Positions 14,449 to 62,863 of a stretch of 64,000 nucleotides of DNA are shown here, piece after piece. The position numbers were made by a program, and so were the translations under genes. The stretch is from Tortispora ganteri (lineage: Eukaryota). The notes under the pieces are model-generated. The model searched no databases. It had not been told where the DNA came from and saw only the letters and a list, made by a program, of their open reading frames with translations. Every line of letters starts with the position of its first letter. The stretch's first letter is position 1. The stretch is taken from the NCBI GenBank assembly GCA_003707115.1, contig PPNB01000015.1, positions 124,001-188,000 on the forward strand, read 5' to 3'.

Positions 14449-17400
14449 CTAATCATAATACCTCACAATAATGATTGGAATTGCCTTTCTAATAGAAGAT
14501 GCTGTTTCTGCTACTGCGCCTTCGGAGACGCAATGGTCATCGCTGTCTGACGAGAAGCAGAATGCCAGGTTCTCCTGTGTTTTATTTGTGACCGTTGATT
14601 GAGAGTCGTCTCTATATTTTAAATCGGATGTTGCAACGTTCACAGTTTCAGCTACTGGCAAAAAGGAGTCACGACGCTTCTTGAAGGTGACTGCGGTAAA
14701 TTGTTCAAGCCTTGATTCACTCGTTGTTTCGTTATAGGTATTTGTGCTGAATTGGTGCTCCAGTACTGATATAGGTATATGTGATTGATGCAGATATTCA
14801 ATGTTATGACTCATTTGAGGTATTGGTATTCCTGCTAGGGTATCCAGTATAAGAATTTGCGATTTGTTTCCGCTAAGTTTCATTAGATTCTTTTCGGGTA
14901 TTAATTGTCTATTTTGATCATGAATTGAATTGTACTTCTTGGCATACGCGACTGCAAACTTCTTAAATTTACCAAATGGAACTTTGGAATTCAATTCTAT
15001 AAGTCTGCTAGTCAAAAGTCGATGCTTTTCCACAATTTTGGCGTGAAGGTTCAGTGATATATCTTTGCTTAAAGCAACTAGATTGGTAAAAAGCCGATGA
15101 GCTTCATGCAAAGCACCGAAAGGATTTAAAATTGCAATTGCTGTGTTCCAAAGCATAATAGTAATGCGTTCTGCCCGGGATATGTCCAATAACCTCATAC
15201 ATTCTTGCAAATAATGTTCAATTGCATGGTCGTATGTATTGCGTAGCCGTTTAATTCCTCCTTCAGAAGACTGACTGATCACATGCAATACAAGTCCATT
15301 TAGAGAAGAATTATCATTAGAGTTCTCCATGTAATGAGAGCGGACAACAGAAGAAATAACCGCCTCATTTAATTCCAAGGAGCCTGGGTAGACCAAAAGC
15401 ACAGAAAGTATGAAGTCGACATATATTGTATTGACACTCATGGTTTCAATAAAATTGGTGATTCGAGTTTTGGCCTTTTTCCAACTTTGTGTCTTCAGAA
15501 GCGCCTCAATTTCGATAACAGTTAATAAGTGAGACATCTCAACAACAATAGTTGCAATTTGTTTATTCGTTATATAACTCGACGCTGTTATAAGATCATT
15601 TTTGCGCGTTAATTGTGCGTTTAAGCGCAATAGAGTGTTATAATCTAAGATATCGCTGCTGCATGTCTCGAGTTCCATAAACTCTTGAAGGGTTTTTAAT
15701 TGAAGCGCCGAATAATTCATGGCCTCCATTAAAAATGAATCATTGATAAAGACACAGTCAATATGGAATCTTAGATTCCATATGAGTTCGATTGTCAAAT
15801 ATTTTGCAAAGGAGAATGAAAATGGTATTGCTTGTAATGCAGCCTGTACGATATTTCCCATAGCTTTAGAATATAGAAATGAGATCTCGTACTTGTGAGC
15901 ATGCAAGGCCAATTTTTGAACCAATATTTTGAAAGCTCTTATCATTTGCTTCGAGCTCATTGGTACAGAAACAAAAGATTTTAACTTGCAAGATTGTAAA
16001 AGCATTGTTGTAAGTGCATATGCGTAAGGTAAGAAGTTGTATGAGCATCTATCATCCGAGAGGAGTATGTTTATAGTACGTTCAAGTGTAAGCATAGCTA
16101 CTTCATCACTTTCGTACTTAACTGCATCATTAAATATCTCCAAAAATCTCTCGATAGAGCAATCTTGGATTGTCAGTAACATATATTCATATGCTTTCAA
16201 TGCCATTAACCCATCATTGATTCTGCAGACAAGGTTCATATATAGTGCTTGAGATTGAGTATGACTTAGCAGTAAATTTTCGTATTCTAAAGCTATTGAA
16301 CGGGCTTGATCGGTTTTGTTGTTTTCAATTGCCATTTCTATTCGAGCGCAAACAACTTCGCGTAGATCAGGGATATGCAACAGTCCTTTAAATGAAAGGC
16401 AATAAGCCGCATATAAAAGCCGTGCAATTTGGTAGTTTTGGTTATGTCTTTCTCTTAAAGCACAATGCCGTAAAATTTCGCGGCATTTAGTGATTGTGCT
16501 AGATTTTAATATATTTTTGTAGGTTCCGCGGTATATTGCAGCAAAGAGGTCGAGCAAAGTACAGACATGTGTTTCAGTTAAATTTTTGATGCTTGAGAAT
16601 GCTTCAAAAAATATTAGCATGCAATAATTAAGAATATGGATGTTTAGAGGAATAATTTGGTCAATAGCTAGAATTGACAGAACTTCACAGCATTCCGCAT
16701 GAGTGATAATAGAAGTAGCGGATTTTATAAGGGTCAAAGACTCTGAGCAGTAAAACTCTTCATTCTCTGTAGATTGATCAATAAGTTGAATTGTTCTGAC
16801 AATCTGTGGGTATATTATTTTATGATTTCGATTGTGGTATAAGTAGAATTTGAGTTCTACAGCCTGATAGCTGAATGTACTTCTTAAAGAATGTGATTTT
16901 CTCAGAAAGAACTGAAATTCTGTAGAATTCTCAATTAAAAGGCATGCAAGTCCATACCATATAGGAAGTTGTAAATGACTAAGTTTGCTTCGCGAATGCG
17001 GTTCGAGGTCATCGTATGTTAGAAGCATAAGGTGATATGCAAAGCAGTAAGGTACATGTGATACACGTAAATCTTCAGTAGCGACTTGTTGCGCTAAAGC
17101 GACAAGAGCTCCAATAGTATAAGCCAAATATGATGGATTTAGTGGATTGAGTACTAAATCCAAGAGTATTTTAGGCAACTTACGATCAGTTTGCAGTCTA
17201 TAAGCCAAAGTTGTAATGAAACTTTTGTAAGAAGATATTGGTTTCTTTAAAAATGTGCTAACCACAGAGTCATTTGAATCAAAAAGGCCAATTATATTTG
17301 TTAATAGCCATTCCGTGTAAACATGGTCAGCAGTTTCTGTGCATTTGCATATCCCTAATAAGCCGAACAGGAATAATCGCGTACTCACGGTACCAGTAGA

Positions 17401-17697
17401 GCTAGATTGTACGGAGCATTTTAGTCTTTGAGCGACAAATCCAATACGATACCAGTTAGCACCTGCGACATTGATAAGAATAGATTCAATAGATATTCCG
17501 AAACTTTGGTCACAAATTTCAAGAATTTGTGTTTTTGTGCAGTCATTTACATTATAGTTCGATGGTAAAGCTCTTTCTAAGTGCACCAATGCATCATAAA
17601 CAGTTTCAGGATGAGCCTCAATGCATTCCCTTTTTTTTAAAGCACAATTAGCATTATCTAAACATCTAAATAAAACTGCAGAATTAAAATCCTCCAT
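14449..17697 (-). CDS. SPO22: Large alpha-helical/TPR-like protein; probable highly diverged meiotic Spo22/Zip4 (TEX11)
   Basis: 1082-aa uninterrupted ORF. The segment ILRHCALRERHNQNYQIARLLY...AIENNKTDQARSIALEYE...SQALYMNLVCRINDGLMALKAY follows the helical/TPR pattern of the central Zip4/TEX11 block, and MLWNTAI matches its C-terminal W-N-x-A motif. Pattern-level similarity only. Confidence 0.5.
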   Translation of the reverse strand: MEDFNSAVLFRCLDNANCALKKRECIEAHPETVYDALVHLERALPSNYNVNDCTKTQILEICDQSFGISIESILINVAGANWYRIGFVAQRLKCSVQSSSTGTVSTRLFLFGLLGICKCTETADHVYTEWLLTNIIGLFDSNDSVVSTFLKKPISSYKSFITTLAYRLQTDRKLPKILLDLVLNPLNPSYLAYTIGALVALAQQVATEDLRVSHVPYCFAYHLMLLTYDDLEPHSRSKLSHLQLPIWYGLACLLIENSTEFQFFLRKSHSLRSTFSYQAVELKFYLYHNRNHKIIYPQIVRTIQLIDQSTENEEFYCSESLTLIKSATSIITHAECCEVLSILAIDQIIPLNIHILNYCMLIFFEAFSSIKNLTETHVCTLLDLFAAIYRGTYKNILKSSTITKCREILRHCALRERHNQNYQIARLLYAAYCLSFKGLLHIPDLREVVCARIEMAIENNKTDQARSIALEYENLLLSHTQSQALYMNLVCRINDGLMALKAYEYMLLTIQDCSIERFLEIFNDAVKYESDEVAMLTLERTINILLSDDRCSYNFLPYAYALTTMLLQSCKLKSFVSVPMSSKQMIRAFKILVQKLALHAHKYEISFLYSKAMGNIVQAALQAIPFSFSFAKYLTIELIWNLRFHIDCVFINDSFLMEAMNYSALQLKTLQEFMELETCSSDILDYNTLLRLNAQLTRKNDLITASSYITNKQIATIVVEMSHLLTVIEIEALLKTQSWKKAKTRITNFIETMSVNTIYVDFILSVLLVYPGSLELNEAVISSVVRSHYMENSNDNSSLNGLVLHVISQSSEGGIKRLRNTYDHAIEHYLQECMRLLDISRAERITIMLWNTAIAILNPFGALHEAHRLFTNLVALSKDISLNLHAKIVEKHRLLTSRLIELNSKVPFGKFKKFAVAYAKKYNSIHDQNRQLIPEKNLMKLSGNKSQILILDTLAGIPIPQMSHNIEYLHQSHIPISVLEHQFSTNTYNETTSESRLEQFTAVTFKKRRDSFLPVAETVNVATSDLKYRDDSQSTVTNKTQENLAFCFSSDSDDHCVSEGAVAETASSIRKAIPIIIVRYYD

Positions 17698-30676: not shown

Positions 30677-32026
30677 ATGTATTGTCTGCAGACAATGCCT
30701 CCTAACTCGCCAAGTGCGCGGAGAGAGGTTAAACGAAGTCTTGAAGATAAAGAGAATGATTCTATGAGCAAAATGGCACGATTCGAAGAGGCCATTGAAC
30801 GTAAGAAGAGGGTCAATACGCTGAGTGAGGAAGAAGGTGGTGGTTCAGATGACAGTGACGAAGATGACGAATTACTGGACGAAGAACAGCGTCTAGAAAT
30901 AAAACAATTTAATGAAGCATTTCCGTCATTGTCTGAACATTATAAAGTTGTTGAAAAAATAGGTGACGGAGCATTTAGCAGTGTTTACAAAGCGATCGAT
31001 TTGAAGTACAATAGTTATCAAAATAGATGGGACACGAACAAAAAGTTGTCCTTAGAAGAGGCAGCGAATAGAGAGTCTGGAAGTTCTCGGAAGCATTATG
31101 TTGCAATCAAGAGAATATATACAACTGTTAGTATACAAAGGATCTTGAACGAATTGAACACAATGAGAAGTCTGTCATTCAGCCGTCGAGTCATTCCTCT
31201 TATAACCGCTATGCGATATCAAGACGAGATATTAGCAGTGGTTCCTTACTATAAAACAGTTTACTTTAGGTCTATATACCGCAAAATGACTTTTGATGAT
31301 ATACGATTCTATATGAAAAATCTTTTTCTTGGTTTGGCTGACATTCATCATTTAGGAATCATTCACAGAGATATCAAACCAGCTAACTTTTTGTATAATA
31401 TCGAGACTAGGAAAGGTGTCGTCCTAGATTTCGGCCTTGCTGAGACAGAACAAAAAAATGCATTGTGCCCCTGCAGAATGCCAGGCACTTCCGCTCGTAT
31501 TAAAGAAGCGTTGACAAGAAAGCCCATCAAAGGATTCCCCAAGGAAGATTATAGGCCAAGCCGCCGAGCTAATCGCGGTGGTACTAGAGGATACAGAGCA
31601 CCTGAAGTTCTTCTGAAATGCGGCAATCAAACTACTAAGCTGGATATTTGGGGTGCGGGTATGATTTTATTAGCGTACCTATGCCGAAGATACCCTGTAA
31701 TGCGGTCGCTTGACGACGTGGACGGATTGATCGAAATGGCTACGTTGTTTGGAAAGCGGCGCATGCAGGCATGTGCCGCCTTACATGGCTCTATTCTTGA
31801 ACTGGAACTACCCACAGTGAAAGATACCACTACTAGTTTCAGTTCATTCATAAAATGGTGCCTGCAGGACGAGTCGGAAGAAGACGATCCCATGCGCTGC
31901 AGCGATGAGGAGCTTACGTTAGGTCTTGACTTTGTCTCTAAGTGCCTTGAACTTGATTTTCGAAGACGAATTAGTGCTAAAGAGGCATTAAAACATCCTT
32001 TCCTTGCTGATGTTGAAGTGCCTTGA
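30677..32026 (+). CDS. CDC7: Cdc7/Hsk1 DDK protein kinase
   Basis: KIGDGAFSSVYKA, VAIKRIY, HRDIKPANFL, DFGLAE, kinase insert ending RRANRGGTRGYRAPEVLLKCGNQTTKLDIW. Confidence 0.93.
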   Translation: MYCLQTMPPNSPSARREVKRSLEDKENDSMSKMARFEEAIERKKRVNTLSEEEGGGSDDSDEDDELLDEEQRLEIKQFNEAFPSLSEHYKVVEKIGDGAFSSVYKAIDLKYNSYQNRWDTNKKLSLEEAANRESGSSRKHYVAIKRIYTTVSIQRILNELNTMRSLSFSRRVIPLITAMRYQDEILAVVPYYKTVYFRSIYRKMTFDDIRFYMKNLFLGLADIHHLGIIHRDIKPANFLYNIETRKGVVLDFGLAETEQKNALCPCRMPGTSARIKEALTRKPIKGFPKEDYRPSRRANRGGTRGYRAPEVLLKCGNQTTKLDIWGAGMILLAYLCRRYPVMRSLDDVDGLIEMATLFGKRRMQACAALHGSILELELPTVKDTTTSFSSFIKWCLQDESEEDDPMRCSDEELTLGLDFVSKCLELDFRRRISAKEALKHPFLADVEVP

Positions 32027-32128
32027 GGCAAAAAAACCACAATTGCATGTTACTTCATGGAGCCAGCTATCCCGTGCTACTACCTATGCTTAACCCACCC
32101 TTTCACACGCACTCACCATACCCTAACG

Positions 32129-40662: not shown

Positions 40663-40720
40663 TGCGGAAACCAGATAGGAAGGACGAGACAAGTTCAAAG
40701 TGTCAAGATAAATAAGAGGT

Positions 40721-40729
40721 CTAAGTCAT
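40721..40729 (-). other. Minimal uORF (ATG ACT TAG) in the kinase leader
   Basis: The only minus-strand ATG between 40663 and about 41546; it ends 58 nt upstream of the main ATG. Confidence 0.5.
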
Positions 40730-41956
40730 ATAACCCTCAAACTAAAAGAAGCGAGGTAGAGGAGGTAAGAGCGGGGGAAAAATATCAGTTTTCTGAATTC
40801 CTGAATAGATATACCACGTAGAGCGATGTAATGGCCGCTATTGATCGCGCGGTTTATACGCTTTAGCAAGATAGAGGGGAAGTATGGAAAAGAGTAGCGA
40901 CTGAAGGAAAATCAGACAAAGAAATAAAACGGACACACCAACTTATTGTAGACGGTGATTTTATTAGCCCTCAAACGGGATAAAAACAGGGATATAGGAC
41001 GCAAAAAGGGGGCTCTGTCTATGAACTGTAGATGTTATTAGCTGGTAAAGCACCCTTATAGTTAGTTTGCTTTGGGGCAATAAACCTGGGGAACACCCGC
41101 TGAGGCTGGTTCGAGCAAATTCCGCAGTGGCAAGTACAAAAAGCACTAATAAAACAGTTTAAATTATCAAAAATGGACTGCAAAATGTATTGATATTTTG
41201 GTAGGTATTGGTAAATAGCAGGAAAACTATTAGAGTCCACTCTGGTGGAAATTAATCGATGTGGCTTTCCGGCTTCGTGGTGGGCTAAATATCGAGGGTC
41301 GATGATGTCTCCACTTTTAGACCAATAACCGCGTAGGGAGGGGGGAATCCGAGATATGAGGGTGCAGAGAACTATAGGTTTGATCTCGATTTACTATTAT
41401 TCAACAATTTGACACAGAAATACACAAGATATTTGTTCTGCGCAAATAATCAATATCGGAGGCAAAATTATATGTAATTCTAGAATATTGTTAGCTGCAC
41501 CTATACCTTTTGGACCGGTCCGGAGAACGACTAATATCTAATTGCGCATACTTAGAGTTTTAAACATAATAATAACCGCATATGATTGGTCGGTATTTAA
41601 ATGTTTAGGGTTTAAAATAGCATTGTCTAACTGTAATGAGAAAAACGTGATGCATATCAAATAATCTAATATAGTAATTATACAGGTTCACATAAACTGT
41701 TATCACAGAATAAAACATCAAGAGCAATGCGTGTACGATCTGTTTAAATCATTCGCACTAATCTATAGTACATTAACTTCATCAATTGCGCAAGTTTAGC
41801 TCATATAGAGCTATCGTGTTGTTTTATCTTTCATCTCATGATCAAAGCCACAGTTTCTCCGTGTAGTTATTTTTTCGTTCTTTTTCAAAAAATCATAATT
41901 ATTGCATGCACATGTAGTAGTAGTATAACAATAATCACATGAATGTAAAAGAGTGA

Positions 41957-43897
41957 TCAGATTTCTGATTCCCTGCCATTCGCAAGTCCAAACACACGAT
42001 TACCACCTTTCCATTCTCTCCAGCCATCGAAATCAATTAGAGCTTGCATACAGCCCCACTCAGAAATCTTTCTGGCTAGCCAAGTAAACGATACTGGTTT
42101 TGTCAAGAAATCATTGCAGCCTGCGGCCAATGCTTCTTCTTTGTCGCTTTGAAGCGATGATGCAGTCAAAGCAACAATAATAACAGGACTTCTGAAAACA
42201 TCACGATCAAGGCGATCTTCGCTAGGAATATCTGCTTCTTTGGTAGCTGTGAACACATCAGGTTTCAAAGCAGAATCAAATGTGGATTCAAACGGCAATA
42301 AATTACCCTTGCTGCCCATAATGGCACCGGTTAAACTTTGTCCTACATTGTTAACTTGCTCAAGCCTTCGAATTTCTTTCGCTGCATCGATGCCGGACAT
42401 CACTGGTAACTGAATATCCATCAAAATCAAGTGGAAACCTCCACAGCGCCATTTCTCAACAGCTTCCTTGCCATCGGACGCAGAAGAGTACTTAATTCCT
42501 CGTTTACTTAGAAATGCTTCAAGAATTTTGCGATTAACAACGTTGTCCTCAACAATCAGAACATTAATAGGCGGGACAACATCATCCAGTAGAGAATCAC
42601 GTGTAGGGTAAATATTATCAGTAACTTTCTCAGCGGTACTGTATGTTAATATCATAGAAGGATCAGTGTAGTAAAGGTCATCAAATTCTTCAGATAGAAT
42701 ATCAATTTCAGATTGTCGCTTGGTTGTTTGGTATTGCGGAGCTAAAATTATACCACCTTCTTCAACAAAAGAACCAGAAAAGTTGACCGTGCTGGTGTGG
42801 TTAGGATCAGAAAACAATGGATCAAAGGTACCAACGTCATAATCATTGTTAGGGCTGTTTAATTGATCAAATTGTTCAAATTGTAAGTCTTCGTCGGAAG
42901 TTCTGCGACCAGTTTCTGACGTACCAGTATCTGGGTCTCTAGAAGATTGAGAAGGTTCGCTTAAGGACATTGAATACAGAAGCACAGGTAACGTTTCTTC
43001 TTGGTTATCGCCCAGAGCGGAGTGCTGCCGCCGTAACTCCGGTGAAGGTCTGAGATTCATTGAATTCGTAATAACCCTGGAAATAGTAAGATCAGCTTCT
43101 GTAGAATCAAGACCTAGTCCGGGCATGTTATCATCGCTGTCGATCACAGCACTCTCCTGCTGGTAAAAGTTATCAGCATATTCCAAATCAAACTGACCTG
43201 AACGAGATCGAGTGGATTTCGATCTTGGTTTGCGTCCAAAAGTGTCTGAAGTTCGTCTGGTATGTACGGGTTCGATATTTCCCATTCTGAACGTGGGAGA
43301 AGCTGTTCGGAGCGGATGATTGAAGCTATGCGGATGCGTGTAATGAGAAACATGGTGAGAAGATGCATTATTATGACGACTTGGAGAAACGGCAGTGTTT
43401 GGAGCGGAAATGCGAGGTGAACGAGGAGAAGCCAATGAAAGATTATAATCAGAATGACGTTTTTGGTGAGAATGTGAATGCGATCGCGTCGATGGGCCGT
43501 TGTTGTTTGAAGAAGTAGATGAAGTTCTAGAAAGAACAGTGTTGACAGATTCTATCTCAGAAGGGATGGTATAATCGGAAGAGTAAGGACGATTGGAGTA
43601 AGTAGGAGATTCAATTATGAAGGCATCTTTCATGCCCATTCCATCTGGGTATTCCTGTTCTATCACAGACGATATTGTTTCATCAGGTTCAAGAACTCTT
43701 GTGTAAGAAGTGTCGCTTCTTGGTTTGCAGCGGACAAGCAAGTCAGGCGGATCGCAGGAATGAGCGATTGCAGCTTGGAACTTGGAATAAGCGGCGGACT
43801 TCAGATCGTCGACTATTGAGGCCTCGTCTAGTAGTACAGTGGTAGCGACGCCTCCGGGTCGTCGCACCCATATTCTCCTGTTCGGAGAGTCCGGCAT
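41957..43897 (-). CDS. SSK1: Response regulator Ssk1/Mcs4 (HOG pathway)
   Basis: N-terminal RRIWVRRPG domain; receiver domain PPINVLIVEDN, ILMDIQLPVMSG (phospho-Asp), VALTAS, AAGCNDFLTKPV and EWGCMQALIDFDGW. Confidence 0.95.
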   Translation of the reverse strand: MPDSPNRRIWVRRPGGVATTVLLDEASIVDDLKSAAYSKFQAAIAHSCDPPDLLVRCKPRSDTSYTRVLEPDETISSVIEQEYPDGMGMKDAFIIESPTYSNRPYSSDYTIPSEIESVNTVLSRTSSTSSNNNGPSTRSHSHSHQKRHSDYNLSLASPRSPRISAPNTAVSPSRHNNASSHHVSHYTHPHSFNHPLRTASPTFRMGNIEPVHTRRTSDTFGRKPRSKSTRSRSGQFDLEYADNFYQQESAVIDSDDNMPGLGLDSTEADLTISRVITNSMNLRPSPELRRQHSALGDNQEETLPVLLYSMSLSEPSQSSRDPDTGTSETGRRTSDEDLQFEQFDQLNSPNNDYDVGTFDPLFSDPNHTSTVNFSGSFVEEGGIILAPQYQTTKRQSEIDILSEEFDDLYYTDPSMILTYSTAEKVTDNIYPTRDSLLDDVVPPINVLIVEDNVVNRKILEAFLSKRGIKYSSASDGKEAVEKWRCGGFHLILMDIQLPVMSGIDAAKEIRRLEQVNNVGQSLTGAIMGSKGNLLPFESTFDSALKPDVFTATKEADIPSEDRLDRDVFRSPVIIVALTASSLQSDKEEALAAGCNDFLTKPVSFTWLARKISEWGCMQALIDFDGWREWKGGNRVFGLANGRESEI

Positions 43898-45813
43898 TTT
43901 TTTTATTTTTTAAGAAGTGTGTGACGTGGATGTACAGTAGGTCAGGGGAAAGTTTCAAGAGTGCGGCGAACCAAGGAAGGGCGCAGGGCGGTCTTTAAAA
44001 TGTGAAAAATTAGGTGATTATCAAAAGCACTGGATGGCTAGCAGAAGTACCTATAATCTGATCTAATTCAACTAACGTACACAGTAAACACTGTTTGGCA
44101 GTGCGAGAGTGTTAGGGTATAAAGTGCGCCAAACAGGGAGGTGACCAGGACCGGCCGGAAAGGGGTGGCCGATGTGCAAGTTCTGCGTAAACGGCTCAGG
44201 GGTAAACAGACCTCTCAAGCAAGTCAACGTTGTACAAACTTCAAAAAGTCGATCGTTGAATTATCTGATATATTTAGATATATATATCAAACAAAAAATA
44301 TAGAGGAAGTATAGGAAGACAAGAGGGGAGTGTTGGAAAAATTGCGGATGTAATAAAGGTTTTTGAGTGTATTATGTTATAGACCCGCGCCGCCTTTTGG
44401 CCTGGGAGATCACAATGTCAGAAAGCTTAACCTTGCGCTAACTGATTAATACTCAAATATAGAACGAAAACTGTAAATCAGCTTGTTTTTAGAGTTTTAG
44501 CCGACAGTTCCATCTATCGGAAATATATGTCTTGAACCAGTAAGGCAATATAGCAGGCGGCTCCTAAATCTACAAGGCGGAGACGCCGCAAGGTTAGTCG
44601 CTAGCAAGCGATGGCCAACCCACAGGCCGATCCACCAATTACTGAAAATGTTTGCAATGTCTATAGTGGCCAATCTCGAGATACATAAGACTTCATTGCC
44701 GCTAAAGTCAACATGAGGCCACAATTGATATTAACTAAGAAACAACATTAATGCACCCAATTACCGGGTTTGCGCGATCAATAGAGTTCGCAAGAAGATT
44801 CCTCTGGTTCCTGAGTGTATCGTAAGTGGTCTAATGTTTAGTTAGCCGATTACAACAGGTCAAGCACAGCGCTTAAATAGTAGCTTCAATAAGTGACTAA
44901 ACTGCGATAAACTGCGTCATTGTGTTGGTTTTCAATTTTTTGGGCTTCTATTAGACAATAAACTGCGAATGGTAGTTACAGACATATTAAGAGAAAAGTG
45001 GAAATCACATGTTAATATCAGTTAGATACACTTTCGAAAAAAGACTTTTACCAGAACAGTAATAACTGAAAAGCTAAAATAACGCCCGCCAATCGCAATC
45101 AGTAATCCAGCCAGGTAAGTATCTTTTTTAGGAAAGTACAGTTTGTAGTTACGAGGTTTTAATTAATCAGGATAATGAACGACGGTAACAGTAAACTAGT
45201 CATGGCTCTCGCATAATGTGAGTACAGTTTTAAGGCTTATTGAAAAAGAGAACGATAATAACTTTCGATCGACCAATCGCTAATTGATATTCGTTAACTA
45301 AATTAGGAAAACAGATTGTGTGATAAAACTGCACATCATTATTTTATTCATAACTCAATCGGTTAATAAACGTTATCTAATCCAGAGTTGCAGTTTTTCG
45401 TCATCCTACTTTTTTCTTAGCTTTTGATTACGTGGTGGGTGTAATCGATTCAAAATTTACATAGGTCAAATAGGCGCTGAAATCTTAGCAATGATTTTAT
45501 AGTGTTATAACAGCGATATTAACCAACCGCCCTTCCGACAAGAGTGCGAGCCTTGGCGTACCACGCATCCCCGCTTTTTTCAGTTTGATTTCAGAATTTC
45601 TACGTAAGCTTTTTAATTGTTTAATGTGCCACCTTTAGTTCATTAGATATTCGGAAAAATCATATATATAATGTCATTCGTTATTGATTTGTGTTGCACA
45701 CGTGATGGTAGGATAGCACAATATACACCCACATTATAAAAGTCTAAGTAGCTCGATCGATCGAGCGATATCGGATAGCATTTACCGTACACATCCAAAA
45801 ACAGAGATAACTG

Positions 45814-45856
45814 GGAATAATTCTGGAATGATTCTGGAATAATTCTGGAATAATTC
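45814..45856. repeat. 11-bp tandem repeat (GGAATAATTCT) x ~4
   Basis: GGAATAATTCT GGAATGATTCT GGAATAATTCT GGAATAATTC read directly from the sequence. Confidence 0.9.
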
Positions 45857-46434
45857 ATTTCCCTTTTTTTCTACGGGGACCATCAGAGACTTGCCAATCA
45901 ATCACCTTTAATTTAAGGCGGAATTTGAAAGCATAATCGCAAAAGAATACACTGGTTGGTTCATATCGATTTGATCCTCAGGCTGAATGCCATAAACAGA
46001 GCTTAAAACTAGTGATTCTTGTTTGTGAAGTTTGGCCGACAGCATACATTTTCTAGTAGCCATCTCTTATTAGCTTATCAGTTCATTATCTCAATATTGC
46101 CGTCAAACATGCCGCCGGAAATGCTTTCGGGCAAACTATCAGCCAACCCTCCGCCTTAGCCGCTGTCAATTATACTAACTGTGGTCTCGGATCACGCGAC
46201 GAGTATGCACACACTTTAGCCGCCACACTTTAGCCGTATATTTACAATAAAGCATGGATGCGCGCAATCATAAGCGCCTTGACAGATCGAAAACGCTAAT
46301 TTCTTTATATCTTATTAGCTGCCATTGTACGAATAGCTAGTTCAAACTGGTCTTTTAACCCTAAGTCCTCTAACCACCCAACCCAACCCAACCACACCCT
46401 CTGAGGGGCCTAAATTTTTATAGCGTAGCCAATC

Positions 46435-50113: not shown

Positions 50114-52123
50114 TTAAGTAATCTTAAGGAGCTTTAAGAGCTCGGGTATACTGACAGGTTTCTCTGGCAAAGTTGAGTAAAGCAGGCTATAAAGGCGGTT
50201 TCGCCTCATCGGCACATATTTACCAAAACCAAACAGCTTAATCACCTGAAATGACATATAATACACTTTCATTATCTCCCATAGGGCAATGTACTGACGA
50301 AACATGCTTGATACTTCAAGAGGTTTGGACTCCATAGAAATGTAAATGACAGTGCCTTCTCCAGTTTTCACCTTGGACGCATCCGCTGGCAATATGTTAA
50401 ACTTCAGACCTCCAGGAAGCCTTTTAGAATCTTTGATCCTAAGCATAAGCGCAAACAAGGGGAAATGATTGCAAAACGCCAGAGAAAGTTCCAGCAAGGC
50501 GTTGACCGATATGATGATTATCCTAGAAATCGCGAACGCTACGTAGAAAACAAAGACTGTTAACCAGAGAAACCCTAGGACAATGAAGAGCAATGTTCCT
50601 GCCAGTTGCTGGTCAAGGTCGTAGTCACAAGAGTCAATTCTGTTTCTTAAGATGTTTCTGCGCTTGCCTCTGAATAGATGAAATAGAGAGATTAAAGTAT
50701 TAGTATGCACGTGATAGAAGCGAGCGGAAGAAACAAAGTAAGAGTATACATGCAATGTAAAAAGCGAAACAAGATCAGATATCAATGACAATGAGAATGT
50801 CAAGCCTAAGTATCCAGAGTATCCAACAATAGTAACAATTAGGGGTGCATATCCAATTAAGAACTTCAAAAACTGTGCATTTGCATCATTAATCCAGAGA
50901 CACAATTCGCCAAAGAACTCAGCAAGCTGTATATTGAGCTTTATGCCCGCAGGAGCATCCATAAGCCAGACAATTAGGTTTCTTGGTAATTTTATCAAAA
51001 GGCTGTTAACAGTGATGGTGATCCAGGCCACAATTGCTTCTTTGTTATTCAGTACAAGAGCACCAAATCCCGAGCCAATGATCACATCATTAGTGATTAG
51101 CCACAAAGTGTTATAAAAGCGAATATAGTCAGGCTGAAAATCTTGGAGACTTCTCCAGGATTTATTTTTCGTTGAAATGGCAACATATTGAGACGGCAAA
51201 TAGCAGAGTTGCTGTAAACGTAGATCGAGCTGCATTGCAGTTGCTGAAATCTCTTTTAAAGATGAGTAAGAGGAAGAAACTCGGTACTCCAGAATAGCAA
51301 ATAAGATTTCGAAGGAGCACCTTAGCAGAAGGAATGAAGGAACTATTATTAGTTTAAAAAGGAATGTGAGAAAAACAATGAAGCAGGACCATAGTGTAGA
51401 TAAAAGAAAGGTAAATTCTGGACGAGATAGTATAGATGAATTGGCAGGAGAAGCTGTAGCGGATGTCAATACCTGGTCGACCTCATGAGCGCAATTAATC
51501 TGTAAAACGAAGACGTCTAGAGAAGTTTCTTGGACAGTGAGAGCACGAGTTGGTGCATGTGGGAGAATAAGATCACTTAGAAGAGCTTGGCGTGCACGAT
51601 GTTCAATTATTGATTTCTCGTAATTGTGGTATATGACTGGCACAGACTGTCTGCCGGGAAGCTCTAGTTGTATAGGATCTATTGAGAAAAACTGAAGACG
51701 GCGAGGATTAGGACGGGAATATAAAAACACATGATAGATGAAGTTTAAGGCAGTTTCGGGTGTGTGAGAGTGAAACAATGGTCGCGATTGTGTTGGAAGA
51801 GAGACTTGAAGAAGATGTTTCTTGTTAGGGAGGTTAAGACGCGATATGTCTTGGTGTGTAGAGACGTCTAGCAAGCCGAGTACTGAGAGCTTAGAATTAC
51901 CACATGCGGCATATAATTCGCGTAAAGATTTCTTTGCGGATGTGAGATGGGCAGGATTGTCTCCGGAGAGAAGTAAGGGCATTAAAGCAGCGGCGCGATC
52001 TATGTGTAGGGCCGACACTATGAGGTAGTCATCGTGGTTAGTTTTCCAACCAATGAGAAGACGTGGAGTGTTTGAAGCAGGGATATTTACAGGCCAAAAT
52101 ACTCGTGAAAGAGTTTGCTGCAT
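50114..52123 (-). CDS. GPI1: GPI-GlcNAc transferase subunit Gpi1 (PIG-Q)
   Basis: N-terminal RVFWP, QLDLRLQQ.CY.P, YIRFYNTLWL..NDVIIG, WLM.APAGIKLN..LA.F and SLFHLFRGKRRNILRNRIDS..YDLDQ. Confidence 0.96.
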   Translation of the reverse strand: MQQTLSRVFWPVNIPASNTPRLLIGWKTNHDDYLIVSALHIDRAAALMPLLLSGDNPAHLTSAKKSLRELYAACGNSKLSVLGLLDVSTHQDISRLNLPNKKHLLQVSLPTQSRPLFHSHTPETALNFIYHVFLYSRPNPRRLQFFSIDPIQLELPGRQSVPVIYHNYEKSIIEHRARQALLSDLILPHAPTRALTVQETSLDVFVLQINCAHEVDQVLTSATASPANSSILSRPEFTFLLSTLWSCFIVFLTFLFKLIIVPSFLLLRCSFEILFAILEYRVSSSYSSLKEISATAMQLDLRLQQLCYLPSQYVAISTKNKSWRSLQDFQPDYIRFYNTLWLITNDVIIGSGFGALVLNNKEAIVAWITITVNSLLIKLPRNLIVWLMDAPAGIKLNIQLAEFFGELCLWINDANAQFLKFLIGYAPLIVTIVGYSGYLGLTFSLSLISDLVSLFTLHVYSYFVSSARFYHVHTNTLISLFHLFRGKRRNILRNRIDSCDYDLDQQLAGTLLFIVLGFLWLTVFVFYVAFAISRIIIISVNALLELSLAFCNHFPLFALMLRIKDSKRLPGGLKFNILPADASKVKTGEGTVIYISMESKPLEVSSMFRQYIALWEIMKVYYMSFQVIKLFGFGKYVPMRRNRLYSLLYSTLPEKPVSIPELLKLLKIT

Positions 52124-52383
52124 TAGAAGCTTCCTCTACGGCGGAGTTGTTCCTTGGCGGATATAGTTGGGTGCACTATTGGTTTCGAATCAACTTCTTT
52201 TATGGATAGACTATAGATGAATGCGAGTAATATTGCGAGAGCGGCAAGCAGGGCAAGCAATGCGTACACAATGTTCAAAAAGAAAGAAATTTTCCAAAGA
52301 CACAGCAAGTCAGTTTGCAATTTGTAAATGTCGATGTGAAAATATACGAAAGGCAGTGCTGCTAGAAGAAGATAAAAAAGCAT
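52123..52383 (-). CDS. 86-aa hydrophobic microprotein of unknown function; stop overlaps the GPI1 start (TAATG)
   Basis: ATG-initiated ORF with two hydrophobic segments and a basic tail ending LRRRGSF. It fills the space between the bL35m gene and GPI1 and has no internal ATG in any frame. Confidence 0.62.
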   Translation of the reverse strand: MLFYLLLAALPFVYFHIDIYKLQTDLLCLWKISFFLNIVYALLALLAALAILLAFIYSLSIKEVDSKPIVHPTISAKEQLRRRGSF

Positions 52384-52523
52384 ACAAAGTGTACGTTGGG
52401 TAAGAGGTGGGAGAGGAGGGTAGTATAGTGTGGTATTTCCTCTTTCTTTTTCAGGGAAGGGAAAGGGGAAGGATAAGTTATATACAAGGGTGCGAGGAAA
52501 CTACAACGGTATCTATAGCGCAA

Positions 52524-52822
52524 TTAACTGAACGGCATGAGTCGTTTAACGCGCTGAGTGAGCTTTCCATGCGATTTACTTGTTGTTAGGACAATTTTGG
52601 ACAGTCTCTGTTTAGTATTGTGACGGAGACCTGTGAGATTGTGGTTTGAGTAGGCTTTGTTCTAGTTAGTGTTAGAAAGAGTTCCTTACTGGACCAACAA
52701 GCTGTACTTACCCTTTTATATTCACCTGTAGCTATTTTCTTAAATCTTTTTGCTGCACCATGGTGTGTTTTTATTCCTGCAGCCTGTTGTACCGGCTTTA
52801 ACAGGGCAATATGTCTGAGCAT
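52524..52822 (-). CDS. Mitochondrial ribosomal protein bL35m; exons 52822-52712 and 52661-52524 (82 aa)
   Basis: IKTHHGAAKRFKK...YKR|NKAYSNHN...KRLMPFS after removing a 50-nt intron GTAAGT...ACTAACTAG. The ORF track reads through the intron in error. Confidence 0.88.
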
Positions 52823-55863: not shown

Positions 55864-56949
55864 CTACGGGTGGAAAACTATACGGCCTTCCACCTTTCCT
55901 TTAGCCATAGCTTCCATATACTTAGGAGCCTCTTCGAGAGGAACGACAGTGTACTTTGGCTTCATGAGTCCAAGCTGACAGAGTCTCAAACATTCAGCAA
56001 GTTCGTTAGAAGTTCCCCAGAAAGATCCCTGGATTCTGACTTCGCGAAGGGCGAGATCGGTAAGATTAAAAGACAATTGAGGGTTAGCAAGGCCAACAGG
56101 TACAATTGTACCACGGGACGCCACATGTTTCTGGGCCAGACTGAATGTAGACTGAATTCCAACGATGTCCAGTACGATATCGACGTTAAGAGGATCATCA
56201 GGTAGAGATTCAAGTACCTCATCAGCGCCTGCAGCTTTACCGGCATCGCGAGCAGAAGGTTTCAAGTCAGATGCGTATACATAAGAGCCAAATGTTTTAG
56301 CGAGTTTTACTGCATTGAGTCCCAGGCCTCCAAGACCAAGGATTAGCACTCTAGTGCTGTTTGAGGCTCCTGCTTGCTTGAGTGCGCGGTAAGGAGTTAA
56401 CACAGCATCAGTGCAGCTAGCAGCTGCCTCAGCTGTAACTCCTTCAGGCACTTTGACGATCGATCGGATGTTAGGAATGCGTATGTACTTCTGGTAACCT
56501 CCATCAAGACCAAGACCGAACCATTGGCCTGTTTTGGCGACATTAGTGCAATCGTTGTCGAAGCCATCGCGACATAATTTGCAGATACCACAAGGGTTAG
56601 GACCATGCACTGCGTACAAATCACCTTTTTCAAATCCGGTCACATCTTCACCAATTTCGTGAATTGTGCCAACAATTTCATGACCCATTACGAATTGTCC
56701 AGGTAAAGGGATTCCGCCGTCGAGCACGTGCAGATCAGAATGGCATAAGCCTGCGGCTTTGATCTCAAGAACTACCTCACTTCTACCTGGTTTTGGAATA
56801 GGTATTTCGGTACGAACTAGATTTTCATGACCTGGTTTGTAAAGGAATCCTGTTTGCATGGCCTTGGACGAATACGACTTGTTTAGAAGACTAATTGATG
56901 AAGTTCGTCTAATTTGATACTTGACTAGCGGTTTCAGAACTCTTAACAT
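55864..56949 (-). CDS. Zn-dependent medium-chain secondary alcohol dehydrogenase/carbonyl reductase with N-terminal presequence
   Basis: GLCHSDLH, GHE, structural Zn CGICKLC...C, TDAVLTPY, GLGGLG, and an Asp at the end of the Rossmann beta-B strand (NAD preference). LALREVRIQGSFWGT is typical of yeast secondary ADHs such as Candida parapsilosis SADH/CPCR2. Confidence 0.9.
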   Translation of the reverse strand: MLRVLKPLVKYQIRRTSSISLLNKSYSSKAMQTGFLYKPGHENLVRTEIPIPKPGRSEVVLEIKAAGLCHSDLHVLDGGIPLPGQFVMGHEIVGTIHEIGEDVTGFEKGDLYAVHGPNPCGICKLCRDGFDNDCTNVAKTGQWFGLGLDGGYQKYIRIPNIRSIVKVPEGVTAEAAASCTDAVLTPYRALKQAGASNSTRVLILGLGGLGLNAVKLAKTFGSYVYASDLKPSARDAGKAAGADEVLESLPDDPLNVDIVLDIVGIQSTFSLAQKHVASRGTIVPVGLANPQLSFNLTDLALREVRIQGSFWGTSNELAECLRLCQLGLMKPKYTVVPLEEAPKYMEAMAKGKVEGRIVFHP

Positions 56950-57705
56950 TAGAAGAGTTTTCTACCAAAAGTTACTGCAGATATGAACATCTATTTGAGA
57001 TTTTTCTTTTTGGCTTTTTGCCTCTATTTATATTCATTGGTAAAAAGCCGTCTCCGCTGCATAGTTAAAGTGGTCTTATCTGTCAACTATAAGGTTATAT
57101 CACTCATTCGGCATCTGGTCACTCAGCATAAGTAATCCATCCTGAACAAGATGGATAACCTGTCAAAATTAATAAGAAAAGGGCAATTAAGTCAATAATA
57201 TCCTATAAAATATTTATAATTTATTTTCCCTGCCCAATTAGCGTTGTGGTAGCCACAATGACAACATATTCAATTTCGTGCAAGCGGAACCTCGGGCTTC
57301 AAGCCAACTCAAAAGTTCAATAAAGTTTAACGGTAACATTACCTAAAACTCATTTTCTATCGCCAATGCTGATAATAGTCTCATCATACTCGAACCAAAG
57401 ACAGTTTCATACTAAACTAAAGACTATCGTTATTTCCTTAGAAAACAATAAAACCCGTAACCTATTAGAATATTAGTGGTCCAGGTCCCTATGCTTTTTT
57501 TCTGGAACCCTTCTCTCGTTTAGATTTGTTATATATCACGTGCCAATACATTTGCCTATTATAGAAGTCCCAACTACACCAAGTCTGTAAACCAATAAGA
57601 ACTCATGAACCGCTTCCGATCGCTCTTCTATTGTATCCCGTATATTGTCTAATCTCCACTTTTACCCCTCCCCTCCTCGTTTGATCACACCGCGCTTAGA
57701 TTAAC

Positions 57706-58080
57706 ATGTCTGCACCTATTGAAATTGACTCAAAACAACTTATGCGATCACGCAGGCTTTCCTCTGCGCCTGAATCACCTATCAACCTGCCGCGATCCTG
57801 CAACAGCAATGTGTCATCGTATTCCTATCTGTCTCCAGCAATGAGAGAAGAAAAGTACCATGCATCTGAAGTATTCTCACCAGTGTTTGGCGGACCGTCC
57901 GTGAGCTTAGTTTTGAGTAGTTCACAAGGTTTTGACTGGGATACCGCTGCTTTTCCTGGCCATAACCACTCTGTACTCGGATCGATCAATTCCATTTTGT
58001 ACTCTTCACATAGCCGCACTACCCATGATCCTGACAATATCTATCTGACGCCTGAAGATATCGATATATTCCCCTCTTGA
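57706..58080 (+). CDS. 124-aa Ser-rich fungal protein of unknown function (SQGFxW motif, acidic C-terminal DIFP)
   Basis: ATG with A at -3 after a pyrimidine-rich tract; RRLSS motif, LSSSQGFDWD block and C-terminal IYLTPEDIDIFPS; converges on the RasGAP gene with a 138-nt gap. Confidence 0.6.
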   Translation: MSAPIEIDSKQLMRSRRLSSAPESPINLPRSCNSNVSSYSYLSPAMREEKYHASEVFSPVFGGPSVSLVLSSSQGFDWDTAAFPGHNHSVLGSINSILYSSHSRTTHDPDNIYLTPEDIDIFPS

Positions 58081-61025: not shown

Positions 61026-62636
61026 TCATAAACTTATCTGAATTGCCTGTACTACTTCATGTGGAGCATTAAGGGCTTTCCGCTTAGAAGCACTAAGATC
61101 ACCCGATGGGGTGGCTGGTACAGCAGAGCTAAAGTCAAACATAGCAGATATTTCATCAGGTATTACAGCACTCATGACCTTCTGAGCAATGGAAGATTCA
61201 ATACTGTTGTTCTGAGATCCTTTGTCTATATTTTTAGCATTGAAGTCAAATATAGACTGTGAAGACGGAAGTGAAGGTTCGGAAGAGATAGCATTTCTGG
61301 AAAGAGCGCTAGGTCCTCCAAAATGAAATCCATTTGAGTCAGTACCTTTAGCAGGAGCTAAAGGTCTAGATGGAGAAATCTCTATTGACGTCTCTTGCGG
61401 TTGATTGAACACGAACGGGTTCGGTTTAGCAGGCTCAGGTTTAGAAAAGGCTTCAGAATTATTCATCTGAATATCAGTCTCGGCACTAATAGACAGCCGC
61501 AAACTAGAGCTCTTGGTTGGTCTGTATTTTTCTGACACCAAGGGCATTTTCGGAGAATCGCTACCATCTTTAGAAGTATCATGAATCTGGTTCAGAGGAG
61601 CAGGCGAAAAGGTACCTTTATTATCAGGGCGTGCTTTAGAAATTATGGATAACAGTGGAACAGGTTGTTCCTCTTCTTGAGGTTGCTTAGGAGATTCATC
61701 TTCAGCTTTAGTTGTATGCGCGCTTTTAGGAACAATATCGACCTCTACATAAGGATTCTCATCAGGCTCGATGTCCATTCCAGAGGTATCGCTTAAGCCT
61801 TCTTTTGTGCCTTCTTCAGCGTCTTCTTTAGACTCAGTGAGTAATGAGATTAGAGTAGTGGCGGTTCGGGAAAGTAATTTCTGCGTGCCTGCTTCCTTCT
61901 GAGAACTGCTGTGATTTTCGGTAACTTCTGGACCTGAAAAAGAGTCGCTGGTCATAGCAGAAGATAAAGCCGAACTTTTGAAAGGAGTAGAGAGCGAAGG
62001 AAACGACGCTTTAGGCGTGACAATTCCAGCACTGAATCGACTCTTAGGTTTGACAATATCTTTGTATTTTGGAGTGTATTTAGGTACAGTTACAGGACTG
62101 TTTCCTAGTGCTGAATGAATATTTGTAGATGTGTTGGATGCTTCAGTGTGTTGCATTGTAACCGGTGTGCGAATGTCTTCAGCGAGATGTTCATTAGAAA
62201 TAACGCTCGGATACGTTATTGCACTGGTTGGCGTATAAGGATTAGCAATAGGCGTTCCTAAAGTAGGAATTCCAGTCGCTTGTCGGATTAAAGACATTAC
62301 TCCTTCAGTTTCGATATCAGTTAGGGGTCTATCGCCGTTCTCACGAAAAAATTCCGCCAACTTTTGCGATGGAGAACCTGAAGAGCTTCGCCTAGACGGA
62401 GAAAAATAATCACTACTAATTCCGCTTTTCTTTACAGGAGTATGTACGTCCTCAGTTTCCTCAGATTTAGATTCTGCATTGGATATCCATTTAGCGGGCG
62501 TTAACAGGGCCTTTACTCTCGACATTAAACCACCATGTGATCTTCTCGGAACAGGGGTATTTTGACCAGGCTTGCTTGAATAAGGTGTAAATCCCGATCC
62601 AGGTCCTTGCCTCCGTTGAGAAGGAATTTTTGGCAT
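61026..62636 (-). CDS. NUP60: Nuclear basket nucleoporin Nup60-like
   Basis: N-terminal PY motif plus amphipathic helix GLMSRVKALL; helical region LAEFFRENGDRPLTDIETEGVMSL; LSRTATTLISLL, Y.P.KSSSLR and FxF motifs (FVF, FHF, FDF). Confidence 0.78.
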   Translation of the reverse strand: MPKIPSQRRQGPGSGFTPYSSKPGQNTPVPRRSHGGLMSRVKALLTPAKWISNAESKSEETEDVHTPVKKSGISSDYFSPSRRSSSGSPSQKLAEFFRENGDRPLTDIETEGVMSLIRQATGIPTLGTPIANPYTPTSAITYPSVISNEHLAEDIRTPVTMQHTEASNTSTNIHSALGNSPVTVPKYTPKYKDIVKPKSRFSAGIVTPKASFPSLSTPFKSSALSSAMTSDSFSGPEVTENHSSSQKEAGTQKLLSRTATTLISLLTESKEDAEEGTKEGLSDTSGMDIEPDENPYVEVDIVPKSAHTTKAEDESPKQPQEEEQPVPLLSIISKARPDNKGTFSPAPLNQIHDTSKDGSDSPKMPLVSEKYRPTKSSSLRLSISAETDIQMNNSEAFSKPEPAKPNPFVFNQPQETSIEISPSRPLAPAKGTDSNGFHFGGPSALSRNAISSEPSLPSSQSIFDFNAKNIDKGSQNNSIESSIAQKVMSAVIPDEISAMFDFSSAVPATPSGDLSASKRKALNAPHEVVQAIQISL

Positions 62637-62789: not shown

Positions 62790-62863
62790 GGGCATGTGGC
62801 GCAGTTGGTAGTCGCGCCAGTTTTGCATACTGGAGGTCTCCGGTTCAAACCCGGACTTGTCCA
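62790..62863 (+). tRNA. tRNA-Ala(UGC)
   Basis: Acceptor GGGCATG/CTTGTCC with G3:U70; anticodon arm CCAGT-TTTGCAT-ACTGG (TGC at 62824-62826); T arm TCCGG-TTCAAAC-CCGGA; A73; intronless. Confidence 0.92.

Follow-up and report, generated by a model that had tools for sequence, protein, structure and literature searches.

Potential transmembrane (TM) segments are common in the intergenic DNA of budding yeasts, more so than shuffled sequences predict, with a mean of 2,283 unannotated TM-forming open reading frames (ORFs) of at least 150 nucleotides (nt) per genome, and 35.5% of unannotated intergenic ORFs of at least 300 nt bear a TM segment (PMC10063215). T-rich non-genic DNA has been proposed as the source of 'TM-first' proto-genes (PMC7005711). 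We describe here an 86-codon ORF that directly precedes GPI1, a gene for a subunit of the glycosylphosphatidylinositol (GPI)-N-acetylglucosamine (GlcNAc) transferase, on the minus strand of a 64,000-nt stretch of DNA from the basal budding yeast Tortispora ganteri (hereafter the window), whose positions are used as coordinates throughout. The ORF resembles the T-rich TM proto-genes in being an unannotated intergenic ORF of the Saccharomycotina, T-rich and TM-like, for which no homologs were found. It differs from them in that it is longer than most, is more hydrophobic than composition-matched shuffles, and sits exactly between promoter-like elements and a gene of an essential pathway. Given how often the intergenic ORFs of budding yeasts form TM segments, a long hydrophobic ORF beside a promoter is a known kind of object, and from the sequence we think it slightly more probable than an even chance that this one is an orphan of the proto-gene type, lying upstream of GPI1 and without a maintained protein function. 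The likelihoods given in words in this text are our judgement and were not computed.

Other described systems resemble the locus in part. Yeast upstream ORFs (uORFs) passed by leaky scanning share with it a first AUG whose context is weak (T at −3) and which precedes a run without AUGs up to the main start, the presence of this AUG on the mRNA being putative here; however, 86 codons is very long for such a uORF, and the 260-nt leader that it entails exceeds the ∼150 nt over which ATGs are depleted upstream of genes in the window. In humans, PYURF-PIGY is among the characterised bicistronic transcripts (PMC13303939), and there too a gene of the GPI-GlcNAc transferase shares its locus with a second small ORF. 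The human arrangement has the small transferase subunit as the downstream cistron and both of its ORFs are conserved, whereas here the transferase gene is that of the large Gpi1, and no relatives of the small ORF were found. The small proteins Eri1/PIG-Y, Gpi19/PIG-P and DPM2 are similar to the ORF product in size and in having two hydrophobic segments on a Kyte-Doolittle scale, but no profile or sequence match connects them to it, and it showed no fungal conservation in protein searches. Caliciviruses, influenza B virus and the hypovirus CHV1 reinitiate at UAAUG or AUGA, where an out-of-frame stop and start overlap as they do at this junction; in contrast to these, no 18S-complementary motif and no stable structure were found upstream of it, and TAATG also stands at seven of 33 ordinary gene starts here.

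The ORF was singled out in an earlier reading made from the letters of the window alone (the sequence-only reading), and its description of the locus proved accurate. On the sequence, the ORF runs for 86 codons on the minus strand and ends in a TAATG overlap with the GPI1 ATG, such that its stop and the GPI1 start share a nucleotide, lie within a few nt and are in different frames. No ATG occurs in any frame between the two start codons, and the upstream ATG has the weak context TGT-ATG, with T at −3, a base found there at five of the 33 gene starts in the window as against A at 20. Hydropathy was calculated with a scripted Kyte-Doolittle scale over 19-residue windows and not with a dedicated TM or signal-peptide predictor; the translation and this profile bear out the two hydrophobic segments (approximately residues 2–20 and 26–61), which are followed by a polar, net-positive tail ending in QLRRRGSF and so containing the RRRGS reported earlier.

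Searches with the ORF product returned no relatives. Pfam gave no family at E≤0.1 or even at E≤10; there were no homologs at E≤1 among 5301 word-sharing candidates of 47–151 amino acids (aa) drawn from 5.8 billion clustered proteins, and none at E≤0.001 among 1.84 billion representatives of any length. The best chain in the PDB, from an unrelated protein, scored at chance level (E 5.3), and the annotation of the sister species T. caseinolytica contains no counterpart. The suggestion in the sequence-only reading that the ORF may encode an unannotated subunit or regulator thus finds no backing in Pfam, the PDB or either of the large protein collections. A language-model atlas gave the product a recognition score of 1669, compared with the 2300 reached by 91 of 100 known-family proteins, and placed it beside low-scoring bacterial hypothetical clusters (0.84), although this score does not show whether a gene is real.

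A 124-aa ORF elsewhere in the window (57706–58080, plus strand), likewise without a Pfam family, served as a positive control. It has one relative in the 5.8 billion clustered proteins, the annotated T. caseinolytica protein CANCADRAFT_30911, with 92% identity over 124 aa, and since this control found its ortholog, the annotation of the sister species does include small genus-specific orphans. The 124-aa ORF looks like a genus-restricted orphan gene in its own right, and a CT-rich tract stops 12 nt short of its ATG.

The GPI1 start to which the ORF is joined appears sound. The closest database relative of the window GPI1 is CANCADRAFT_1492 of T. caseinolytica NRRL Y-17796, with 93% identity across all 669 aa and an identical start (MQQ.LSRVFWP), and the consensus of a 44-protein fungal Gpi1 alignment likewise opens a few residues ahead of RVFWP. 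The protein search with Gpi1 gave 655 matches at E≤1e-20 among 8000 scored candidates; a metagenome scan gave 29 pattern matches, none of which was confirmed by tblastn. Because an in-frame TAG lies upstream (Table 1) and the starts agree in T. caseinolytica and in the 44-protein consensus, we conclude that the GPI1 ATG is the natural start, as had been proposed, and that the small ORF is not a lost GPI1 N-terminus. The same three observations rule out the ORF as an N-terminal exon or a frameshifted extension of GPI1, as does its failure to match any protein of any length. We also considered an intron of the 5′ untranslated region (UTR) starting at the GTATGC that holds the ATG; by inspection it would be without a CTAAC-type branch point near its 3′ AG, such as the intron of the upstream neighbour has, and is probably not real. 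A gene on the opposite strand was rejected as well, the 60-aa plus-strand ORF at 52221–52403 having no Pfam family and a low codon score.

Table 1. Positions of the small ORF, GPI1 and neighbouring elements in the 64,000-nt window.
Feature	Positions	Strand	Description
86-codon ORF	52123..52383	-	ATG 52383-52381, TAA 52125-52123; 86 aa; read from sequence
TAATG stop/start overlap, ORF/GPI1	52121..52125	-	A 52123 common to TAA and GPI1 ATG (52123-52121)
GPI1 (Gpi1/PIG-Q subunit of GPI-GlcNAc transferase)	50114..52123	-	669 aa, no intron; Pfam PF05024 E 2.6e-90
In-frame TAG	52136..52138	-	five codons 5′ of GPI1 ATG; excludes GPI1 N-terminal extension
mL35-like gene (mitochondrial ribosomal protein L35), upstream neighbour	52524..52822	-	exon 1 Pfam Ribosomal_L35p E 1.2e-5, below gathering score
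TATATAA	52478..52484	-	40 nt past inferred mL35 stop, 101 nt before ATG 52383
Two CT-rich tracts with A-rich stretch between	52398..52492	-	tracts at 52492-52453 and 52420-52398; end 14 nt before ATG 52383

The sequence-only reading took both the ATG-free stretch and the TAATG junction as signs that the two ORFs are translated together from one mRNA. We compared them with the other 32 genes that can be defined in the window with Pfam support, the number of genes per test being 31–33. Measured against the window as a whole, the absence of ATGs is rare (none seen where ∼4.5 are expected; P about 0.014–0.029). Upstream of genes it is ordinary: the nearest upstream ATG is at least 245 nt away in 11 of 32 genes, and at least 258 nt away in eight of 32, GPI1 included. 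A stop codon overlaps the start ATG at eight of 33 genes, as TAATG in seven and TGATG in one. Neither the junction nor the long ATG-free leader should therefore be taken as a sign of translational coupling in this genome. The accompanying argument, that no room is left for a separate GPI1 promoter, holds only when the ORF is presumed to be a gene, and does not discriminate between the readings. We note that the ADH-like gene at 55864–56949 (minus strand) is preceded by a 13-codon ATG uORF at 56950–56990 that ends in CTTCTAATG, identical to the GPI1 junction.

In a census of ATG-initiated ORFs starting no more than 300 nt upstream of 31 genes, the ORF is the longest of ∼100, the next having 57, 55, 48, 45 and 44 codons, and its 86 codons fall on the geometric tail of this distribution. 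Elsewhere in the window there are 15 non-gene ATG ORFs of at least 86 aa, all of which overlap real genes. When the spacer is shuffled with its dinucleotides preserved, a sense ORF of at least 86 codons arises in 0.96% of shuffles and one that also ends at the junction in 0.08%; in a genome of some thousands of spacers, chance would still allow a few. No tandem repeats occur inside the ORF, and the only one near it is a GGGAAG array at 52454–52472 within a CT tract. Rfam and tRNA scans found nothing in 52000–52600, their sole match in the window being a tRNA-Ala at 62790–62863.

A stop placed exactly on the GPI1 AUG raises the question of a dedicated regulatory uORF, in which translation and termination at that point would matter, by stop-start coupling or regulated reinitiation, and the peptide would not. 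UGGGA is an 18S-complementary motif of termination-reinitiation, and its DNA equivalent TGGGA, with 55 matches in the window, has none on the minus strand in 52124–52383. The 161 nt around the junction (52260–52100) fold no better than shuffled sequences (z +0.71; 149 of 200 shuffles at least as stable). Precedent exists in that UAAUG is used for coupled termination-reinitiation in some viruses (PMC10275272), including a fungal hypovirus (PMC2699510), and the AUG-free stretch between the two AUGs agrees with such a role; however, the long-ORF cases documented in PMC10275272 depend on a structured element farther upstream and its pairing with 18S rRNA, and ordinary genes here often start at the same junction motif. 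With no UGGGA and no excess of RNA structure, a route to GPI1 by termination-reinitiation of the viral type is unsupported, and we regard a dedicated regulatory uORF as improbable.

The DNA ahead of the ORF has a promoter-like layout. The upstream neighbour, the mL35-like gene, contains a 50-nt intron (GTAAGT at 52711, CTAAC, TAG at 52662) which, like its second exon, was read from the sequence; exon 2 searched alone matched no Pfam family. Its stop is probably the TAA at 52526–52524, which would leave a 400-nt spacer before GPI1 that contains the ORF. In this spacer, TATATAA could be either the TATA box of a transcript starting near the ORF or an efficiency element for the 3′ end of mL35; TATATA-type sequences act as 3′-end signals in yeast terminators, and one was considered for L35 on that ground. 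The CT-rich tracts reach 82.5% pyrimidine in their best 40-nt window and give ATG 52383 a CT score of 1.04, equalled by only one of 379 other intergenic ATGs and by two of 33 gene ATGs. Strong CT tracts also stop 0, 5 and 12 nt short of the ATGs of L35, an Mdm35-like gene and the 124-aa orphan, respectively. In Aspergillus, the DNA from the TATA box to the start sites includes a pyrimidine-rich stretch that belongs to the core promoter (PMC9703631). The layout ahead of ATG 52383 lends indirect sequence support to a putative mRNA that carries both ORFs.

The explanation of the proto-gene type, which we favour, is that a T-rich stretch between the promoter elements of GPI1 and its start codon happens to be open in one frame, and that translation of it, if there is any, would yield a very hydrophobic peptide. 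Transcription would begin in or just past the CT-rich tract that follows TATATAA, and the AUG at 52383, whose context is weak (T at −3), would come first on the mRNA. Ribosomes bypassing it would scan 258 AUG-free nt and initiate at GPI1 by leaky scanning, while those using it would make the 86-aa peptide, mostly without restarting, and the ORF would be at most a brake on GPI1 translation. If the proto-gene explanation is right, we consider it fairly probable that ATG 52383 lies on the GPI1 leader; that the GPI1 start site lies downstream of this ATG, leaving the ORF as untranscribed promoter DNA, we rate somewhat below even. In both cases the peptide would be neither a conserved protein nor a subunit of the GPI-GlcNAc transferase.

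Several observations weigh against this explanation, some of them against the scanning model within it and others against the lack of a maintained function. Across the 31 genes with a defined spacer, sense ATGs in the first 100 nt upstream of starts number 0.6 per 100 nt, compared with 2.0 for CAT. Their depletion weakens past 100 nt and is gone beyond 150 nt, which suggests that typical leaders here may be no longer than ∼150 nt. The 260-nt leader that the leaky-scanning part of the explanation needs would be longer than this, which counts against it. On the other count, the neighbourhood of ATG 52383 resembles a gene start, and the control with the 124-aa orphan is imperfect, as annotation could have overlooked an ORF of 86 codons that is part of a bigger gene's leader.

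The hydrophobicity of the product also weighs on that side. Its best 19-residue Kyte-Doolittle mean is 2.98, a value attained by no other of the 220 open frames, real genes among them, that have at least 60 codons in the window; the highest non-gene frame after it reaches 2.53. Among stop-free shuffles, 0–0.2% attain 2.98, even when composition is held within blocks of 30–60 nt, and 0.1–0.5% attain the mean hydropathy of the ORF, 0.97. The other two frames of the same DNA are not hydrophobic (maxima 1.05 and 1.17). The hydrophobicity of this frame thus far exceeds what its composition gives (P about 0.001–0.005). T makes up 34% of the ORF (88 of 257 interior bases) and 51% of its first 45 nt, and is found at 46% of second codon positions; G declines from codon position 1 to 3 to 2, a coding-like order.

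Codon-based measures are neutral on whether the ORF is coding. Its codon log-likelihood lies at the 12.5th percentile of 471 real 86-codon segments and at the 83rd of 72 spurious ORFs; for the synonymous-codon score the corresponding percentiles are the 37th (real segments) and the 86th (42 spurious ORFs). Single-sequence AlphaFold2 predicts one continuous helix over residues 2–64 (mean predicted local distance difference test score 82), where the hydropathy profile has two hydrophobic stretches; the prediction is uninformative on topology.

Taken on their own terms, these data could describe a genuine small membrane protein restricted to Tortispora and held under selection, spanning the membrane twice and carrying a basic tail in the cytosol. 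As the 5′-proximal cistron, it would be expressed from the TATA and CT-tract promoter; GPI1 would be made either from the same mRNA, through leaky scanning, or from a transcript that starts within the ORF, and the function of the small protein need not concern GPI synthesis. Its case is built from the extreme frame-specific hydrophobicity, the coding-like position-specific composition, a synonymous-codon score closer to that of real genes than of spurious ORFs, a CT tract that ends before the ATG at a distance comparable with those of L35, the Mdm35-like gene and the 124-aa orphan (14 nt as against 0, 5 and 12), and the occurrence of that genus-specific orphan in the same window. It has to contend with the lack of an annotated counterpart in T. 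caseinolytica or elsewhere, even though the control orphan was found, and with a neutral codon log-likelihood, the low atlas score, the weak start context, a zero spacing to GPI1 that is unusual for an independent gene, and the abundance of TM-forming intergenic ORFs in budding yeasts. Because of the extreme hydropathy and the promoter-like setting, we keep a genus-specific membrane microprotein as a tentative candidate, albeit clearly less likely than a frame without maintained function.

The sequence-only reading went further and suggested that the product may serve the GPI-GlcNAc transferase as a subunit or regulator, in the manner of Eri1/PIG-Y or DPM2, with both it and Gpi1 made from one bicistronic mRNA. 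The ORF does adjoin GPI1, its size and two-segment hydrophobic layout are like those of the small transferase subunits, PYURF-PIGY provides a human bicistronic precedent, and Eri1, itself a subunit of the transferase, binds Ras2 (10.1101/2024.02.28.582498). Only adjacency and size, however, link the ORF to the known subunits, adjacency alone is weak evidence in so compact a genome, and TAATG is a frequent start context in it. In the annotated fungi no homolog was found, either ahead of GPI1 or at another locus. Nor is there a match in Pfam, which presumably holds models of PIG-Y, PIG-P and DPM2. A complex prediction for Gpi1 with the ORF product, run without controls, gave no answer (scores 0.00 and 0.00 against a mark of 0.34) and counts as evidence neither way; a PDB search with Gpi1 gave no chains at E≤0.001. 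The proposal is thus unsupported, and we hold it to be very improbable.

The same low standing applies to a more specific version, in which a two-TM microprotein particular to Tortispora, as the first cistron of the GPI1 mRNA, would act at the endoplasmic reticulum (ER) with the GPI-GlcNAc transferase, either as an analogue of Eri1/PIG-Y or as a nascent peptide that targets the mRNA. In the latter form, the hydrophobic peptide, while still being synthesised, could draw the GPI1 mRNA to the ER membrane ahead of the emergence of the first TM segment of Gpi1, which follows approximately residue 235. If true, an ER-acting microprotein would make this a cellular bicistronic gene of a budding yeast, with a young membrane peptide recruited to an ancient enzyme. 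Were the product a real partner of Gpi1, the first step of GPI-anchor synthesis would gain a subunit or regulator, and yeast would offer a rare case of a cellular bicistronic mRNA.

Other parts of the window also contain DNA to which we could assign no recognised gene or whose gene structure may need revision. The response-regulator-domain gene at 41957–43897 (minus strand) is preceded by 616 ATG-free nt, with a CT tract and TATATA ∼390–404 nt upstream, and this region could be a long leader, contain a 5′UTR intron, or hold an unrecognised gene; the 2.5-kb stretch at 43898–46434 has no Pfam-recognised ORF. On the other side of this gene, the 1.3-kb spacer at 40663–41956 has no recognised gene, and within it a 123-codon stop-to-stop open frame (41022–41390, minus strand) has neither a long ATG ORF nor a Pfam match. 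At 32026–32057 (plus strand), a protein-kinase gene stops only 30 nt ahead of the first ATG of a PRP38-family ORF; because the PRP38 Pfam match begins only at residue 66 of the open frame, the true start may differ or an intron may be present. Two long minus-strand ORFs, of 1082 aa (14449–17697) and 536 aa (61026–62636), match no Pfam family at E≤1e-5.

On the proto-gene explanation, the ORF ahead of GPI1 would show cleanly how a compact yeast genome can give rise to a long and very hydrophobic reading frame from T-rich DNA close to a promoter, and as such it is a candidate for studies of how membrane proteins arise de novo.

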